Below are positions 8,347 to 62,914 of a DNA stretch of 64,000 nt, piece after piece. Position 1 is the first letter of the stretch; every line of letters starts with the position of its first letter. Position numbers and translations under genes: made by a program. Source of the stretch: Chiloscyllium plagiosum (lineage: Eukaryota). The notes below the pieces were generated by a model. It saw only the letters and a program-made list of their open reading frames with translations, made no database searches and was not told where the DNA came from. The DNA is taken from positions 68,079,872-68,143,871 of the forward strand of contig NC_057718.1 in the NCBI RefSeq assembly GCF_004010195.1, in the 5' to 3' direction.

Positions 8347-9615
8347 TATAGAATCATAGAGATGTACAGCATGGAAGCTGACCCTTCGGTCCAACCCGTC
8401 CATGCCGACCAGATATCCCAATCCAATCTAGTCCCACCTACCAGCACCCGGTCCATATCCCTCCAAGCCCTTCCTAATCATATACACATCCAAATGCTTC
8501 TTAAATGTTGCAATTGTACCAGCCTCCACCACTTCCTCTGACAGCTCATTCCATACAAGTACCACCCTCTGTGTGAAAAAGTTGCCCTGTAGTTCTCTTT
8601 TATATCTTTCCCCTCTCACCCTAAACCCATGCCCTCTAGTTCTGGACTCCCTGACCCCAGGGAAAAGACTTTGCCTATTTACCATATCCATGCCCCTCAT
8701 AATTTTGTAAACCTCTATAAGGTCACCCCTCAGCCTCCGACATTCCAGGGAAAACAGCCCCAGTCTGTTCAACCTCTCCCTATAGCTCAAATCCTCCAAC
8801 CCTGGCAACATCCTTGTAAATCTTTTCTGAACCCTTTCAAGTTTCACAACATCTTTCTGANNNNNNNNNNNNNNNNNNNNNNNNNNNNNNNNNNNNNNNN
8901 NNNNNNNNNNNNNNNNNNNNNNNNNNNNNNNNNNNNNNNNNNNNNNNNNNNNNNNNNNNNNNNNNNNNNNNNNNNNNNNNNNNNNNNNNNNNNNNNNNNN
9001 NNNNNNNNNNNNNNNNNNNNNNNNNNNNNNNNNNNNNNNNNNNNNNNNNNNNNNNNNNNNNNNNNNNNNNNNNNNNNNNNNNNNNNNNNNNNNNNNNNNN
9101 NNNNNNNNNNNNNNNNNNNNNNNNNNNNNNNNNNNNNNNNNNNNNNNNNNNNNNNNNNNNNNNNNNNNNNNNNNNNNNNNNNNNNNNNNNNNNNNNNNNN
9201 NNNNNNNNNNNNNNNNNNNNNNNNNNNNNNNNNNNNNNNNNNNNNNNNNNNNNNNNNNNNNNNNNNNNNNNNNNNNNNNNNNNNNNNNNNNNNNNNNNNN
9301 NNNNNNNNNNNNNNNNNNNNNNNNNNNNNNNNNNNNNNNNNNNNNNNNNNNNNNNNNNNNNNNNNNNNNNNNNNNNNNNNNNNNNNNNNNNNNNNNNNNN
9401 NNNNNNNNNNNNNNNNNNNNNNNNNNNNNNNNNNNNNNNNNNNNNNNNNNNNNAACAGTGGCACCACGTTAGCCAACCTCCAGTCTTCCGGCACCTCACC
9501 TGTGACTATCAATGATACAAATATCTCAGCAGGAGGCCCAGCAATCACTTCTCTGGCTTCCCACAGAGTTCTAGGGTACACCTGATCAGGTCCTGGGATT
9601 TATCCACTTTTACCA
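8347..9615 (-). mobile_element. Young CR1 LINE spanning an assembly gap
   Basis: Intact ORF 8428-8847 ending in GYGPGAGRWD*, upstream piece YPRTLWEAREVIAGP...EDWRLANVVPL, and a CATAGA tail at ~8347-8360. Confidence 0.92.
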
Positions 9616-19600: not shown

Positions 19601-20133
19601 TCCAACATCTATAGTAATGGTGTGAATCCACAGAGATTTAAGGGTTGCTATCATTGAAGCCTCACAGTGCCAAGGACCGGGGTTCGATTCCACCCTCCAA
19701 TGACTGTGTGGAGCGGCCACATTCTCCGCATGGACTTCCTCTGGGTGCTCTGTTTTTTTTTCTCGCAATCGAAAGGTGTGCATATTAAATGGGTTGCCCT
19801 ATAGTGTNNNNNNNNNNNNNNNNNNNNNNNNNNNNNNNNNNNNNNNNNNNNNNNNNNNNNNNNNNNNNNNNNNNNNNNNNNNNNNNNNNNNNNNNNNNNN
19901 NNNNNNNNNNNNNNNNNNNNNNNNNNNNNNNNNNNNNNNNNNNNNNNNNNNNNNNNNNNNNNNNNNNNNNNNNNNNNNNNNNNNNNNNNNNNNNNNNNNN
20001 NNNNNNNNNNNNNNNNNNNNNNNNNNNNNNNNNNNNNNNNNNNNNNNNNNNNNNNNNNNNNNNNNNNNNNNNNNNNNNNNNNNNNNNNNNNNNNNNNNNN
20101 NNNNNNNNNNNNNNNNNNNNNNNNNNNNNNNNN

Positions 20134-27099: not shown

Positions 27100-29160
27100 T
27101 CCTAATTGCTAACCCATGTGATCATCGCTTTCCTCTCTTGAAATCTCGCTGTGAGTGAGGGCTCAGGAGAGGGATGATTAAGGTGAGGGAAACTGAGAGA
27201 GAAGCTGTGAGCAGGAGGCTTTAGGGAGAAGTGGCAATTAAGAAGGTCTGGAAGGGAATTGATACATGGGAGAATGCAGGAGAAAAATGGTAAGCAGGAG
27301 AGAATCAGCAAGCGAGAGAGTAGTGCATGGAAACATTAGGGAATGGGAGAAGCCATCCCAAAATGGTGCTAATCAGGTCATGTGGCATTACATCAGCTAT
27401 GGGACGTTCTGAAAAAGGAGAGTGAGCAGTCATTAGTCATCGTACACCTTAGTACCAATGACAGGTTTTAAAACAATGATGAGGTGCTAAAAGCCAAATA
27501 TAGTGAGTTAGGAAGTAAATTGAAAGGGCAATTATGTGTGACCAAAATATTAGTTTTTCAAAGTAGAAGGGAACCAGTAGATGTGTCGTATCTAGGCAGC
27601 ACAGTGACTCAATGGTTAGCACTGCTGCCTCACAGTACCAGGGATTCGGGTTCGATTTCACCCTCAGACTACTGTCTGTGTGGAGCTTGCACATTCTCCC
27701 CATGTCTGCATGGGTTTCCCCTCTCAGTCCAAAGATTTGGAGGTTAGGTGAATGAGCCATGGGAAATGCAGGGTTACACCGATAGATAGGGGGTGGATCT
27801 GGGTGGGATGCTCTTTGGAGGGTTAGTGTGGACTCAAGGGGCCAAATGGCCTGCTTGCACACTGTCCGGATTCAATGATTCCAGAAGTACATTTGACAAG
27901 GTACTTTATAGAAGATTGTCATAAGATAGGAGTCCTTGGTGTTGGAAGTCACATATTGACATGATTAGAAAATTTGCTGATGGGTCAGAAACAGTGAGGG
28001 CGAAGGGGTTCTTTTATAAAGTTGGCAACCTGTAACCAGTGAGTTCCACAGGGGTCAGCGCTGGGACCATAACTCATTGCAGTATACATACTAATGGTTT
28101 GGAGGAAGGACATTAGTCTAGAAGAGGGGGGGGGAGGAGAGAAGAGGGGGGGGGAACTCTGAGTCCTGGGCCTGCTTTTGGAGCTGCAGCCTGGGTCTCA
28201 CCCAGGTCAAGGGAGTGTTGCTGCTGACCTGGGGCCCACTCCCTCTGCTGGTCTCTGGGATGTACGATGACTAATGACTAGAGTTTAGGGGAATCAGAGG
28301 TGATCTCTTTGAAACATATAAGGTTCTTAAGGGACTTGAGAGGATGTTTCCCTCTTAGTGGAGTCTAGGACTAGAGAACTTAGTCTCAGAATAAAGGGGC
28401 GCCAATCTAAGACAGATAGGAGGAAGAATTCCTTTTCTTGGAGGGTTGAGAGTCTTTGGAATTCTGTGCTACAGAAAACCGTTGGAGGCAGAGTCTTTCG
28501 GTATATTTAAGGCTGAGATAGATTCTTGATCAATGGTGAGGTCACTTCTGGAGTACTGTGTGCATTTCTGTTCTAGGAAGGACATTATTTAATTGGAGAG
28601 GGTTTAGAAAAGATTTACAAGGGTATCGCCAGGAACGGAAGGTTTGAGTTCTAAGCATAGGCTGTGACTTTTTTTTACTGAAACGTAAGAGGTTGACAAG
28701 AACCCTTATAGAGGTTTATAAAATCATGAGGTAAGGTGAATAGTAAAGGTCTGTTCCCTAAGGTGGGGTACCTCAAAACCAGGGAGCATGTTTTTAAGGT
28801 GAGAGGAGAAAGTTTTAAAAAGAACATGAGGACAACATTTTTACACAGAGCGGTTCGTGTGTAGAATGAACTGCCAAAGGAAGTGGTGAACGCAGGTACA
28901 GTTACAACATTTAAAAGACATGAACTGGAAAGGTGTGGAGGGATATGAGCCAAACGCAGGAAAATGGGCCTAGTTTAGTTCGGGAACACGGTGGGCATGG
29001 ATTAGTTGGACAGAAGGATCTATTTCTAGAATAGCAGAATCAATGGGTATGGGAAAAACGTAGGAAAGTGGATATGAGGGAGTTCTGTTCAGCTGTAATC
29101 CTTTTGATTAGCAGAGCAGGCTGGAAAGGCCTACTCTGTTCCTCGTTCTTATGGTCTTAA
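27100..29160 (+). mobile_element. Composite of CR1 fragments (ORF1 esterase-like piece ~27420-27470; RT/3' pieces 27885-29160)
   Basis: EQSLVIVHLSTND resembles the CR1 ORF1 SGNH motif VVVHIGTND. Also PQGSALGP at ~28047 and CR1 3' tails at ~28960-29030 and ~29150. Confidence 0.7.
27595..27882 (+). mobile_element. HE1-type SINE
   Basis: GGCAGCACAGTGACTCAATGGTTAGCACTGCTGCCTCACAG...GGGTTCGATT head and a full body. Confidence 0.88.
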
Positions 29161-57289: not shown

Positions 57290-58914
57290 AGTGGTTTTTC
57301 CAAGTTTCCTTTTCATCAGTCATTGACTTTTGATGTTGAGGGAAAGGCAGAGACGGACAGGAAGAAAGGCTTTCACTCTTGCTTATAAAGCATCTTTTCT
57401 GCTCAGAAGCAGCTATTGATGAAGATCCATTCGTACATTAATAAGTTTGTTCATAGAATCCCTCCAGTGCAGAAACAGGCCATTCAGCACCACAATCAGT
57501 AACTACATGGCTCACCGTCAGATCATTTAAATCACCAATTAAATAGTACTTTGTTCTGATTAAGAGTCATTAGACTAGAAACATTAACTCTGCTTACTCC
57601 CCACAGACGCTGTCAGACTTGCTGAGTTTTGCTAACACTTTCTGTTTTTTTGTTTCACATCTCCAGTATCAGCAGTTATTTGTTTTTAGCTTTAAGAATC
57701 TTACACGTTTCGGTTAGCACATTCCCTATTCTTCTAAATTACAGTCAATAGAGTCCCAAACTGCTTAGCCTTTGCTCACAAGACAATGTGTCCAAACAAC
57801 AAATCATCCTGGTGAACCTTCTCTAAACTGCCTCCAATGAAATTATATCTGTCCTTTAAAAAGAGGACCAAAGCCACTCTCAGTACTCCTAATGTAGCCT
57901 CACCAGCATTTTATGCAATTACAGCAAGACGTCCCCACTATATACTCCAACTTCCTTGAAATAACAGCCAGCATTCCATTAACCAACTTGATTATCTGCT
58001 GCACTTGTGTGCTGGTTTACCATGCTAGCTGCACAAGTACCCGCCAAGTTCCTTTGATTTGTTGCTCTCTGCAGTTTTTCTCTATTTACATAGGTTTTTT
58101 TGTTCTGTCTTGTTGAAATAACTACACAGAGGCTGGTATACCGCCACCAAGTCACCCTTTATTTACTCGTGCATAGTACACCAGCTGTGGTCAGCCTCTG
58201 AAGCGAAGAGGTTCTGAATCTCCAGTTTATGTATTTTTTAAATTTTATTAACCAGTATAAATTACAAATGAACAGTTAATAATGAACAGCAGTTTACAAG
58301 AAACAGCAATTTACAGAGGAAAGGGGTGGCAAAGCCAGACCCCCAAACCCCAGCGTAAAACCAGTTCATAAGGAAAAGAGGGCAAACCTCGAATCTCAAT
58401 CCCCTGTTTATTTTTTTTTTCTTTGGGAGTGCTTATTTTTTTCCCCAGCATCCATATTGTGCTTGCGCAGGAGTGAGACACAGTGAAAGACACAAGGTGC
58501 ACGTATCTTAATTCAAATTTCCACCACCAGGAAGAAAAGAAACACCCGAGTGGCCAGTGACAAGCACTGCCCTTCACATCAAAGGGCAATGCTGTGTGAT
58601 CAAACAGTGAAGGGGAGGGCAGGGGCTAAATCAAAATAGAGTTGGAGGGGGAAATAATGCACTCCACTCCCTGCGGCGCCCACCTCTCCCTGAACAACTC
58701 CAGGGTGTCAGTGAATTCCCTGTTTATATTTTTTTTAATTTTTTTTTGTCCCCTCCCTGACAAAAAAAAATGGAGAATCCTGCACACTGATTCAGCTCCC
58801 TGAAAGCCAGCTCTGAGTGAACAGAGCCTCTGACAGCCCGTTTTTTTTTGTGTGGGGAAGCTGGTCCAGGGACAGTCCCCTTCCCCTCAGACACAGTCAA
58901 GGAGGAGAGTCCTT

Positions 58915-58936
58915 ACACACACACACACACACACAC
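58915..58936. repeat. (AC)n microsatellite
   Basis: About 11 AC units read directly. Confidence 0.9.
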
Positions 58937-61638
58937 TGGTCCAGCTCCCTCCAGAGCCAGCTCTCAGAGTGAACAGGGTATCTGGCACTCCAGTTCTTTT
59001 TTTTTCTTTCCTTTTTTTTAAAAATCCCCCACACTACCACCTAAATGCAGTAGTACTTATTTTCCCCCAACACCCATGGTGTGTGTGTGCAGGTGAGAGA
59101 CACAAGGTGTACAAATCTTTATTCAGTTTCCACCACCAGGAAGAAAGGAAACACCCGAGTGGCCAGTGACAAGCAGTGCCCTTCACATCAAAGGGCAATG
59201 TCGTGAGATCAAACAGTGAAGGGGAGGGCAGGGATTCAATCAAATTAGAGTTGGAGGGGGAAATAATGCACTCCATTCCCTGCGGTGCCCACCTCTCCCT
59301 GAACAACTCCAGAGTGTTGGTGAATCCCCTGTTTATTTTTTTTTCCACCTCTCCCTAAACAACCCTAGGGTGTTGGTGGACACTGCGTGCTCTGTCTCCG
59401 GGGACACCCAGGCTTGCCTCCTGGTTTTTTTTTAAACTCCCACACTACCGCCTTACTGCGGTAGTACTTATTTTTTCCCCAGCACCCATGGTGTGTGTGC
59501 GCAGGTGTGAGACACAGTGAGAGACACAAGGTGCACGAATCTTTGTTTCCACCACCAGGAAGATAGGAAAACACCCAAGTGGCCAGTGACAAGCAGTGCC
59601 CTTCACATCAAAGAGCAATGCTGTGTGATCAAATCCCCTGTTTATTTTTTTTAATTTAACCCCCACACTACCGCCGACGTGCAGTAGTGCTTATTGTTCC
59701 CCAGCACCCATGGTGTGTGTGTGTGTGCAGGTGTGAGACACAAGGTGCACGAATCTTTATTCAATTTCCACCACCAGGAAGATAGGAAAACACCCGGGTG
59801 GCCAGTGACCAGCAGTGCCCTTCACATCAAAGGGCAATGCTGTGTGATCAAATCCCCTGTTTATTTTTTTTTCTCCCAGATCCCCGAGAATCTCCTGTTT
59901 AATTTTTTTCTATTTTTTTTCTGTTGTTTTTTTTTAATTTTTTTTATTTTAACCCCCACACTACCACCTAAGTGCGGTTGTGCTTATTTTTTCCCCCAGC
60001 ACCAATGGTGTGTGTGTGTGCAGGTGTGAGACACAGTGAAGGACACAAAGTGCACGAATCGTTATTCAATTTCTACTACCAGGAAGATAGGAAAACACCC
60101 GGGTGGCCAGTGACAAACACTGCCCTTAAATCCCCTGTTTATTTCTTTTTTCTTACAAAGTGCACGAATCGTTATTCAATTTCCACCACCAGGAAGATAG
60201 GAAAACACCCATGTGGCCAGTGACAAACACTGCCCTTCACATCAAAGGGCAGTGCTGTGTGATCAAAACAGTGAAGGGGAGGGTAGGGACTAAATCAAAA
60301 TAGAGTTGGAGGGAGATCCCCTGTTTATATTTTTTTTCTTTTTTTTCTTTTTTTTTCCATTTTTTTTATTAACCCCCACACTACCACCTAAGTGCGGTTG
60401 TGCTTATTTTTTCCCCCAGCACCAATGGTGTGTGTGTGTGCAGGTGTGAGACACAGTGAAAGACACAAAGTGCACNNNNNNNNNNNNNNNNNNNNNNNNN
60501 NNNNNNNNNNNNNNNNNNNNNNNNNNNNNNNNNNNNNNNNNNNNNNNNNNNNNNNNNNNNNNNNNNNNNNNNNNNNNNNNNNNNNNNNNNNNNNNNNNNN
60601 NNNNNNNNNNNNNNNNNNNNNNNNNNNNNNNNNNNNNNNNNNNNNNNNNNNNNNNNNNNNNNNNNNNNNNNNNNNNNNNNNNNNNNNNNNNNNNNNNNNN
60701 NNNNNNNNNNNNNNNNNNNNNNNNNNNNNNNNNNNNNNNNNNNNNNNNNNNNNNNNNNNNNNNNNNNNNNNNNNNNNNNNNNNNNNNNNNNNNNNNNNNN
60801 NNNNNNNNNNNNNNNNNNNNNNNNNNNNNNNNNNNNNNNNNNNNNNNNNNNNNNNNNNNNNNNNNNNNNNNNNNNNNNNNNNNNNNNNNNNNNNNNNNNN
60901 NNNNNNNNNNNNNNNNNNNNNNNNNNNNNNNNNNNNNNNNNNNNNNNNNNNNNNNNNNNNNNNNNNNNNNNNNNNNNNNNNNNNNNNNNNNNNNNNNNNN
61001 NNNNNNNNNNNNNNNNNNNNNNNNNNNNNNNNNNNNNNNNNNNNNNNNNNNNNNNNNNNNNNNNNNNNNNNNNNNNNNNNNNNNNNNNNNNNNNNNNNNN
61101 NNNNNNNNNNNNNNNNNNNNNNNNNNNNNNNNNNNNNNNNNNNNNNNNNNNNNNNNNNNNNNNNNNNNNNNNNNNNNNNNNNNNNNNNNNNNNNNNNNNN
61201 NNNNNNNNNNNNNNNNNNNNNNNNNNNNNNNNNNNNNNNNNNNNNNNNNNNNNNNNNNNNNNNNNNNNNNNNNNNNNNNNNNNNNNNNNNNNNNNNNNNN
61301 NNNNNNNNNNNNNNNNNNNNNNNNNNNNNNNNNNNNNNNNNNNNNNNNNNNNNNNNNNNNNNNNNNNNNNNNNNNNNNNNNNNNTTTTTAACCCCCACAC
61401 TACCACCTAAGTGCGGTAGTGCTTATTTTGTCCCCAGCACCCATGGTGTGTGTGTGCAGGTGTGAGACACGGTGAAAGACACAAGGTGCACGAATCTTTA
61501 TTCAATTTCCACCATCAGGAAGATAGGAATAACACCCGGGTGGCCAGTGACAAACACTGCCCTTCACATCAACGGACAGTGCTGTGTGATCAAAACAGTG
61601 AGGGGGAGGGTAGAGATCCCCTGTTTATTTTTTTTTTT

Positions 61639-61672
61639 ACCGAGCTAGTACTTTAACCAACTAAGCCAGAAC
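61639..61672 (-). pseudogene. Polyadenylated tRNA-Thr-like 5' fragment (or tRNA-derived SINE head)
   Basis: Minus strand GTTCTGGCTTAGTTGGTTAAAGTACTAGCTCGGT followed by an A tract. TGGCTTAGTTGGTTAAAG (61668 to 61651) equals the recalled D-arm of vertebrate tRNA-Thr. Confidence 0.6.
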
Positions 61673-62914
61673 ATCCCCTGTTTATATTGGTCAACCAGGG
61701 CTCCCTGATTGGTCGAGGTTAACAATCTCAATCAAGGATCTCATAGTGAATAAGATTCACCTGGTTCTAATCAGTACACTTCCAAAATTAACAGCTTCAC
61801 ATTATATTCCATTTGCCAATATTTTACACAATTAGCCTATCAGTATCTCTCTGTAAACTGTTTGTATCCCTCTCACAACTCACCTTTCCACCTATTTTTC
61901 AGTAGTCTGCAAACTTGGCTACAGTACATTAGCTTCCTTCATCCACATCAAACTTGATCAGTGGTGCTGTTGCCAAGTCCATCTTGATTGAGTTGAAGTC
62001 CTGTACCCGGAGTATGTTCTTTGCCCTTGCTATCCTTAGTACTTCTTCCAAGGAGTACGGATTCATCGACTGGTTGATGACAATCAGCAGGAGATTTGCC
62101 GATGTGTAACCTCCTGTCATGCTACTACATGAGTCGAGAATCGAATGTTGAGGATTCTCAAAGCCAGTCATTCCTGTCACTGCTGCCATCCCTGTTGTCT
62201 TTCTCCTGTAAACTCAATAGGAAGTGACAATAAATGGAAAAGTAAGTGTCTTAAGACAAATATGACTGTCAGATTTGATTGTGTAGATTAGGAGACAGTT
62301 CCCCAGTTGTAACACAAATGTTAGTGAGGAAGATTTTGCACAGTTATTTGGTCTGGAAGTTGAAGAGTTTTATGGACTAAATAAGGAAAAATCATATTGT
62401 TGCAAGTTATGATCTGAATTGCACTGGCTGATACGGTATTGGAAATAGAATTCGTTGTAATTTTCAACATACTATAAACTTGAAAAGAAGCAACTTGCAG
62501 CAGTATGGGAATAGAGCAAGAGTGTGAGACTAATCGGGTAGCTCTTTCAAAGAGTTGGCACACTTACATTGTGTTGAATGGTGTACTGCTCTGTAAGATT
62601 TCATGATTCTAATTGAGAATTCAATGAAAAATTATCGCCATTTAAGATTATCACTGCAAGTGCAGGGAAAGGTTGGGAAAATTTCTTTATGTAAGGACTG
62701 CTTTGTCACTGGTGAATTATATTAGTTTGTAAAATAATATAGAAGAAGAGTTAATTGCCGAAAAGGAAATCCAAGTAGTGATTAATTCTTTTTTGGTATA
62801 ATTGAGGAAAGTAACTTAATCCAGGGAGACCTGAATTTGCTGATTCTAGCGCACTTTACCCATCAGCAGTGAATATTCAAAGAACTATCTTTGTAATACG
62901 GATCTTCTAGGATT

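Follow-up and report, generated by a model that had tools for sequence, protein, structure and literature searches.

Many long interspersed nuclear elements (LINEs) of the Tx1 clade are target-specific, and two of them, Tx1-8_Crp and Tx1-4_AMi, are said in the main text of the paper that names them to prefer specific groups of long terminal repeat (LTR) retrotransposons (Kojima 2015, PMC4494074). The same text ascribes tandem copies of SINEU-3, described as 'sandwiching a TSD' (target-site duplication), to sequential insertion (Kojima 2015, PMC4494074). Tx1L, which resides in the Tx1D element of Xenopus laevis, is the founding example of a Tx1 LINE with a specific site in another transposon (Christensen et al. 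2000, as cited in PMC4494074). Here we describe a stretch of 64,000 nucleotides from Chiloscyllium plagiosum (NC_057718.1, positions 68,079,872 to 68,143,871 of the forward strand; hereafter the window, lying on contig C9 of the genome as searched), in which an LTR is split at 58217-61685 by an array of truncated LINE copies and other short inserts. One short site in this LTR has, with high probability, been used repeatedly by the retrotransposition machinery of a Tx1-like LINE of the L1 superfamily.

Human L1 provides the general frame for such events. It combines an apurinic/apyrimidinic-type endonuclease (APE) with a reverse transcriptase (RT), and its copies carry a poly(A) tail, are frequently 5' truncated and are flanked by duplications of 13-16 bp; 3' transduction occurs, and other poly(A) RNAs are trans-mobilised by its machinery. 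Its bottom-strand cut falls in a T-rich run before A, and it inserts almost anywhere at TTTT/AA.

Empty, filled and stacked copies of one LTR site

A search of the window for RATCCCCTGTTTAT, allowing up to two mismatches, recovers 12 copies where 1.58 would be expected; the highest count in 100 shuffles is 5. Eleven of these copies fall within 58217-61685, beginning at 58217, 58398, 58714, 59323, 59632, 59851, 59889, 60129, 60315, 61615 and 61672. The repeated motif had been reported in an earlier note made from the sequence alone, and its positions stand, apart from four coordinates that were off by one base. Read on the minus strand, on which the LTR and all inserts described below lie, each copy is ATAAACAGGGGAT or a near variant, with an A-rich or poly(A) tail before it and the 5' end of the next insert after it. 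On the plus strand this appears, as the note had also seen, as a T tract and then an insert after every copy but the right-most (61672-61685), which has no T tract and leads into LTR sequence. When mapped on a genomic copy of the LINE, the array resolves into nine LINE pieces, three of them with unusual 3' ends; elsewhere in the window there are none.

The two flanks of the array are the halves of a single LTR-like repeat. On the minus strand the first motif copy (61685-61672) comes after the U3 side and the last (58230-58217) leads into R, and direct reading of the repeat in this direction gives CCAAT boxes, ATATAAAC, an R-like sequence, AATAAAG about 75 nt further on and the end ..GTTATTTCA. 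The U3 side (61686..61780) contains two CCAAT boxes and terminates at the TATA-like ATATAAAC; in the coverage by paralogues, match starts cluster at 61673. The R-U5 side (58114..58216), which includes AATAAAGGGTGAC and was delimited by paralogue alignment, ends sharply in ..GTTATTTCA at 58114, with match starts clustering at 58113/58114. All 29 aligned rows (28 distinct loci) terminate in ..(G)TTATTTCA or a near variant with different DNA beyond each, so that ..TTTCA is a common sharp 3' end, and a few copies have in common a (G/A)TGG.. stretch past it. The 5' end of the LTR and its flanking duplication could not be fixed, family-wide similarity fading near 61778; a second module (61779-61899) is common to a few copies. 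The repeat is best read, from its sequence, as the LTR of an LTR retrotransposon with putative promoter and poly(A) signals. As both outer flanks are unique, the copy in the window is best explained as a minus-strand LTR that is solo, or at the least internally empty, in agreement with the earlier description of the array as lying inside a solo LTR.

Empty and filled copies of this LTR were compared genome-wide (3.56 Gb in 101,977 contigs), as the earlier note had proposed, by setting the copies directly against one another and not against a consensus. Among 27 paralogues anchored on U3, 14 are empty, having U3 contiguous with the site and both flanks contiguous around a single motif; the other 13 are filled, breaking exactly at the motif and holding LINE pieces with various truncation points. 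At least three motif copies within 1.5 kb are found in 8 of the 13 filled copies, each of which must therefore have received at least two insertions. Anchoring on R/U5 yields 28 distinct loci, 7 of which keep U3 at the site and 21 of which are interrupted, a number that may be inflated by retroposed R pieces; the interrupted copies mostly come after an A tail and the LINE, a retroposon termed X below, or other sequence. In a second LTR subfamily, type B, which has GTGTCAGAGGTTCTG.. after the target in place of GGGGATTCAGAA.., three of 20 copies are empty (L096, L097, L103), and all 17 filled ones are preceded by a poly(A) tail.

The same site emerges when the genome is viewed from the side of the LINE, whose 3' untranslated region (3'UTR) yields more than 3,000 candidates at first look. 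Of 39 LINE 3' ends in 29 loci, 18 are followed within 70 nt by exact AACAGG[AG], compared with 0.95 in shuffles and with 4 of 39 control windows taken 400 nt beyond the ends. An 18-mer made of target and R, with up to four mismatches, is present at 12 of the 39 ends (0.17 in shuffles), and several further ends show decayed versions of the target by eye. Among 40 scored matches of the 3'UTR, most stop at query base 292-293 of 307, directly before the motif. Neither of the patterns that the earlier note had set against its proposal, random flanks of the genome-wide copies and a motif internal to the element, was thus found. Moreover, the bases past ACAGG differ between arrays: in the window GGAT follows in 8 of 11 TAAACAGG matches on that strand, and elsewhere they read AGTTC (5/5, L010), AGATT (3/3, L041), and AGTGTCA or AATGTCA (L106). 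As these array-specific bases match the motif copy contiguous with the flank, the motif is a target-site duplication and is not encoded by the element. The copies together display site-specific insertion into a repeated target with target-site duplication, and the note's central proposal, serial insertion into one LTR site of about 13 bp that is regenerated each time, is borne out by empty, filled and multi-insert paralogues and by motif variants that track the local LTR.

The insertion point coincides with the TATA-like box: U3 and the box remain upstream, and R is displaced downstream by the length of the array. LINE and LTR have the same orientation throughout the arrays read.

Several further observations concern the LTR and its surroundings. 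In L065, frames downstream of the LTR include ..EVDTGTAVSVI.. with matches to gag-asp_proteas and Asp_protease_2 at E 0.017-0.019, under the Pfam cut-offs, and a homologue search with a 91-aa gag-like frame downstream in the same locus found none; in L096 a Met-initiated frame begins about 110 nt past the LTR end. Contigs from a related species (runs X10 and X11) match the unique flanks 57700-58173 and 61870-62300 at about 96% and extend from them into the LTR, and the LTR insertion therefore seems older than the species split. Beside other LTR copies lie an open frame that by eye resembles a CR1/L2-type esterase-like ORF1 (L066:1552-2205) and an RT-like C-terminal open frame of another retroelement (L038:1884-2585).

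The LINE, its passengers and the layout of the array

The inserts are mostly 3' ends of a LINE that appears to belong to the L1 superfamily and to carry an APE, an RT and a Cys-His motif, fish elements with the Tx1 label being the closest to it; this assignment has been partly tested by sequence comparison. C-terminal frames of open reading frame 2 (ORF2) reach 407 aa and end in ..EHAVSTNTLELFRERWAPQG.., and their translations in L042, L009, L003 and L022 contain C-x2-C-x7-H-x4-C (..CLFCGAVESVDHVYIGC..). The best longer relatives of this C-terminus come from teleosts; they measure 1,307-1,332 aa, contain the domains Exo_endo_phos, RVT_1 and zf-RVT (PF13966), and include BAC82609, 'pol-like protein [Danio rerio]'. 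An RT fragment (L020:2060-2743) is 78% identical to a partial Mobula protein, its best named relative. It is further 46% identical over 228 aa (213 bits, BLASTP) to XP_073780380, annotated as 'transposon TX1 uncharacterized 149 kDa protein [Danio rerio]', 38% identical to BAC82609, and matches human L1 ORF2p (structures 8c8j and 8sxt) with 121-122 bits (phmmer). The Tx1-like identity put forward in the earlier note thus has the zebrafish TX1 protein behind it as nearest named relative of that label, and stands at the level of pairwise comparison.

An APE-like N-terminus is suggested by a 138-aa piece of L091 (C27:9435238-9441200) that matches PF03372 (Exo_endo_phos) at E 3.9e-4 with 20.7 bits, under the cut-off of 24.5; PF03372 is also present in the relatives of the RT and C-terminal pieces. 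Upstream in L091 lie two ORF1-like frames, 243 and 193 aa long, in which ..GHIRKNCP.. may be half of a CCHC knuckle; they match no Pfam family, and no further ORF1 copy was found among the loci examined. The 5' side of this locus is rearranged: it repeats the ORF1/ORF2 junction in inverted orientation and contains a 3'UTR piece. Pfam assigned no family to the ORF2 C-terminal stretch there, which is almost all N. We rejected two candidate features: a '1292-aa open frame' is an artefact of Ns, and a protein search of the own genome gave 119 matches, to its last ~88 residues only; a type-B 'long form' proposed as the LINE 5'UTR scored, in local alignment with the sequence upstream of ORF1, 46 in L097 and 36 in L111, against shuffle maxima of 38 and 36. 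In L020, a single open frame (1850-2743) runs from antisense LINE ORF2 end straight into the sense RT fragment. Twin-priming inversion in L1 leaves an inverted 5' segment beside a 3' segment, and the L020 layout looks like such an event. The ORF2 itself holds a target-like ATAAACAGGTCCAGG (L005, L019, L026, L030, L048 and others), with nine 'TCCA' cases.

Read along the minus strand, the array starts with the upstream-most target copy (61672..61685), ATAAACAGGGGAT plus G, which the motif search and reading identify and which is joined to U3 as in the empty paralogues. After it comes an insert at 61629..61671, recognised on reading, with 33 nt (61639-61671) resembling the 5' part of a tRNA or of a tRNA-derived short interspersed nuclear element (SINE) and an A10 tail (61629-61638). 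In contigs of runs X1 and X5 (two each), loose ends at 61636 continue, by eye, into T-arm-like sequence. Between 57500 and 62500, ARAGORN reported no tRNA, the tRNA-like piece included, and Rfam gave two sub-threshold chance matches only. Beyond the next target copy (61615..61628; this and the following copies were likewise located by motif search and reading, and the LINE pieces by mapping on the genomic LINE copy), the last ~213 nt of the LINE (61385..61614) have a tail that enters a run of 909 Ns (60476..61384). This run is probably an assembly gap, being one of three unevenly sized N runs in the window, the others lying at 8861-9453 (593) and 19808-20133 (326).

On the far side of the gap, the insert at 60329..60475 comprises a LINE 3' end cut by the gap (60364-60475) and a complex A-rich tail (60329-60363), after which a target copy (60315..60328) leads into a 3'UTR piece (60143..60314) with its own short tail, whose LINE part (60153-60314) stops ~90 nt short, directly past an internal AATAAA. 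Another target copy (60129..60142) introduces the last ~162 nt of the LINE with a complex tail at 59903-59950 (59903..60128 in all). The small unit at 59865..59902 is made up of a variant target (59889-59902), an ORF2-internal fragment of about 15 nt (59874-59888) and an A9 tail; the target copy at 59851..59864 then precedes the last ~192 nt of the LINE and its tail (59646..59850), an insert also examined by pairwise identity. Following the copy at 59632..59645, the segment 59337..59631 consists of two pieces with no target copy between them, a LINE 3' end (59434-59631, with a tail at about 59425-59433) and a fragment stopping within the ORF2 end (59345-59418) that has its own A tail (59337-59344).

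Past the copy at 59323..59336, the last ~300 nt of the LINE, reaching into the ORF2 end and ending in an A-rich tail (58997..59322), were identified by genome matches as well as by mapping. The interval 58728..58996 holds two poly(A)-ended R-like pieces of type B (58850-58996 and 58748-58840), found by BLAST and by reading of paralogues. A variant target copy, ATAAACAGGGAAT (58714..58727), is followed by a LINE piece (58412..58713) that again reaches into the ORF2 end, its last ~30 nt being missing or replaced (LINE part 58422-58712) before an A10 tail. After a further target copy (58398..58411) comes the 167-nt retroposon X (58231..58397), recognised by its copies in other loci, with AATAAA and a short tail, and the downstream-most target copy, ATAAACTGGAGAT (58217..58230), is joined to R as in the empty paralogues. 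The 5' truncation points of the inserts vary, falling at 58708-58712, 59321/2, 59631-33, 59850-52, 60127/8, 60314-16 and 61614-16. The earlier description of most inserts as LINE 3' ends with differing 5' truncations and some differing 3' ends agrees with this map, and the ORF2-end peptides are present as ..EHAVSTNTLGLFRERW at 59345-59424 and TNTLELFRERWAPQG.. at 59200-59322. The two inserts it had called unrelated to the LINE are real, at 58231-58397 and 61639-61671.

Non-LINE inserts, comprising X, the tRNA-like piece and the two R-like LTR pieces, thus share the target with the LINE. X has its own AATAAA and no LINE 3' sequence or tail similarity beyond poly(A); its copies in L015, L026, L045, L051 and L090 have the target after them in 5/5 cases, and one full-length copy has it on both sides. 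X is likely a non-autonomous passenger, and its presence at the same site suggests poly(A)-based trans-mobilisation of the kind known for L1. The R-like pieces at 58748-58996 (..GTCAGAGGYTCTGTTCACTC..) come after a LINE tail and have no local target copy in front; belonging to the type-B subfamily within a type-A array, they are not local duplications. They suggest either 3' transduction, by read-through from a source copy in a type-B LTR, or trans-mobilised LTR RNA; alternatively, the joints might be long duplications around poly(A)-only inserts. A 'long form' of the type-B R-like sequence, which exceeds 260 nt and lacks AATAAA, was observed in L097, L101 and L111 (compare 58851-58935 of the window), a lone 105-nt fragment of it lies at 28156-28260, and it may represent another LTR subfamily or something else.

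The joints between tail and target always form AATAAA, as where the tail at 58997-59027 meets 58990-58996. A new A run follows within 70 nt at 32 of 136 joints of this type, and at half of those (16) it begins 15-24 nt past TAAA. Cleavage usually takes place 15-24 nt past the signal. Joints of this kind could direct cleavage and polyadenylation inside the R of the LTR, giving 3' transduction of the target.

Proposed mechanism and competing explanations

In the mechanism that we propose, a bottom-strand nick by the LINE endonuclease falls at ..CCYCTGTTTAT^AT.., which is complementary to the TATA-like box of the LTR. The T-rich 3' end so freed would serve as primer on the poly(A) tail of an RNA, which is then reverse-transcribed. 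The template would usually be LINE RNA and sometimes that of the 167-nt retroposon, a tRNA-like fragment or LTR-derived RNA, and copying would mostly halt early, giving 5' truncation. A top-strand cut 13-14 bp downstream would then leave ATAAACAGGGGAT(T) on both sides of the insert, and both target copies could be cleaved again, so that later insertions would stack head to tail in the orientation of the LTR. Since target-site duplication restores the site, insertions pile up. That the insertions are specific in site and orientation, duplicate the target, stack as a rule and share the site with other poly(A) RNAs is shown by the copies; the nick positions, the endonuclease as the seat of specificity and the order of events are what we infer. 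An alternative source of specificity is pairing of read-through RNA with the target in place of recognition by the endonuclease.

A further, tentative extension, to which we give a rather low probability, is that the LINE lives as a parasite of LTR transcription signals. Landing 13-14 bp behind the TATA-like box in the same orientation, it could have its transcription driven from U3 beginning within the insert; transcripts may be cleaved 15-25 nt past the AATAAA of the junction, inside R, and a target copy at the RNA 3' end could pair with the nicked target, adding specificity. Each insertion would also separate the LTR promoter from R and so disarm the host element.

Several observations weigh against repeated, independent use of the site. 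Over 105 nt, the units 59951-60128 and 60364-60475 share 99% identity; their complex tails are similar, and they adjoin the N gap. Two unrelated events explain this less well than local duplication, a common source copy or a fault of the assembly. The unit 61390-61614 is in turn 93.7-95.1% identical to this pair. The units 59434-59631 and 59658-59850 share a 5' breakpoint, and an old duplication is possible, as the earlier note had allowed, although they are only 88.8% identical. No target copy stands at the joints near 59418-59434 and around the type-B pieces at 58748-58996, and three LINE pieces stop short of the usual 3' end of the element; we infer that some joints arose by template switching, read-through transcripts or local duplication and not by a fresh cut. 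The R/U5-anchored count, as noted, may be inflated. As to the element itself, the RT fragment of L020 is inverted beside the LINE 3' part, its link to the family being presumptive, and the only copy with ORF1 and APE (C27; L004, L091) has ~3.6 kb of its ORF2 as N. Independent reads bridge one joint only, at 58146-58303 in run X1, which is possibly the assembly's own sample.

One alternative is that the array grew mainly through tandem duplication in place, or through unequal crossing-over between target copies or LINE pieces, once one or a few insertions had occurred. The 99%-alike units with their similar tails, a direct repeat (D5) at 420-nt spacing and the two units with a common 5' breakpoint would be accommodated by it. 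However, unit pairs in the window are mostly 83-92% identical, much as random genomic copies are (mean 87.8%), and for each unit the genome holds a closer relative at another locus (91-97%). This divergence fits separate insertions or very old duplications, and the earlier note's concern that the units might be identical with a single breakpoint does not hold for most of them. Furthermore, truncation points and 3' ends vary, X, the tRNA-like piece and the type-B R pieces stand between target copies, and arrays with other sets of units occur at 8 of 13 filled paralogues, all of which make tandem duplication improbable as the main source of the array. Somewhat less improbable, though still unlikely, is that part of the stack arrived ready-made, through a read-through transcript of a source array in another LTR that was polyadenylated downstream and carried several units and targets in one event. 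The R pieces of a different LTR subfamily after a LINE tail (58748-58996), the AATAAA at every tail-target joint (a new A run at 32 of 136, at 15-24 nt in 16 of the 32) and the similar complex tails of two units, which suggest templated tails, point in this direction. Conversely, the target copies carry the local GGAT variant in 8 of 11 TAAACAGG matches, the same as the copy on the U3-side flank, long duplications flanking inserts of poly(A) alone could account for the same structures, and no source locus was identified.

The motif might also be the terminal sequence of the element itself and the array a head-to-tail concatemer formed without target specificity, given that the motif always stands between a tail and the next unit and that ORF2 holds the target-like ATAAACAGGTCCAGG with its nine 'TCCA' cases. 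Yet empty LTRs contain the motif without LINE, its variable bases track the local LTR, 3'UTR homology ends before it genome-wide, and the unrelated X has the same motif after it in 5/5 further copies; this explanation is the least credible of all. Hardly more credible is an assembly artefact, in which repeat copies of many loci were stitched around a gap. The 909-base N run inside the array, the 101,977 contigs of the assembly and the short public contigs, mostly from paralogues, invite the suspicion, but many independent paralogous LTRs, on other scaffolds, hold comparable arrays, and the units differ by 8-17% and are therefore not collapsed copies. In public contigs the LINE is present at very high word depth under two species labels. 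The unique flank on either side and the joint of LTR, target and X are matched with 0 differences by contigs of run X1, which possibly come from the sample of the assembly itself. Those of the related species stop at 58173, leaving an array at the orthologous site not decidable from them, and no contig covers the N run. A contig joint from 58166 to 61690 (2-4 per run) was rejected as evidence on this locus, as it derives from empty paralogues. Repeated targeting of the LTR site by the LINE machinery, supplemented at some joints by the other processes named, hence remains the explanation that we favour.

Comparison with known target-specific elements

The arrays reveal how far the sequence specificity of an APE-type LINE can extend, namely to ~13-14 bp in one orientation, and what follows when duplication restores the site: a pile-up, with some 50% or more of the copies sampled from an abundant LTR family occupied. 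They are also a clear example of a transposon family that inhabits another and disrupts its promoter. They further offer a natural enzyme-target pair as a candidate for targeted insertion, a use to which R2-type elements have been put. In annotation, arrays like these are best treated as nested insertions rather than as composite repeats of a new kind.

At the level of literature listings and abstracts, we found no report of a LINE aimed at the TATA region of an LTR or of a shark or ray LINE family with an LTR target, and no mention of the accession BAC82609 was found in the literature. The earlier note's remark that it knew of no described Tx1 family with this target holds to this extent for the LTR TATA region. 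Families that prefer LTR retrotransposons are already published, and the class of target is therefore not new. Like Tx1-8_Crp and Tx1-4_AMi, the present element would be a Tx1-type LINE, its clade being partly tested, with a preference for an LTR-class transposon; it differs in that the main text on those families names no site within the LTR element, and in having a cartilaginous fish as its host.

In human L1, likewise an APE and RT LINE with poly(A) tails, 5' truncation, short duplications and a cut in a T-rich run, the resemblance is one of mechanism. Unlike L1, the element described here needs about 10 further bases (CCYCTG beside TTTAT), and the similarity of its RT to that of L1 is lower (121 bits) than to the TX1-labelled fish protein (213 bits). 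Tx1L also occupies a specific site inside another transposon, its specificity being attributed to its APE-type endonuclease (PMC4494074, main text); its target is a piggyBac-type DNA transposon and its enzyme has been assayed (as cited in PMC4494074), whereas our element is known from sequence.

A parallel in arrangement is that of SINEU-3 and Tx1-Mar on Mariner-N4_AMi of crocodilians, for which the same source describes a fixed target-site duplication of ~16 bp inside an abundant transposon, tandem copies, and a non-autonomous partner with a common target (PMC4494074). There, however, the target is a DNA transposon and the tandems are of two copies (PMC4494074), in contrast to the LTR promoter region and the at least 11 pieces of the present array. 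A further difference is that, here, some 50% or more of the target copies sampled are occupied. The targeting is hence of a kind known in vertebrates, and what is unusual at this LTR site is the depth of the stack and the high occupancy.

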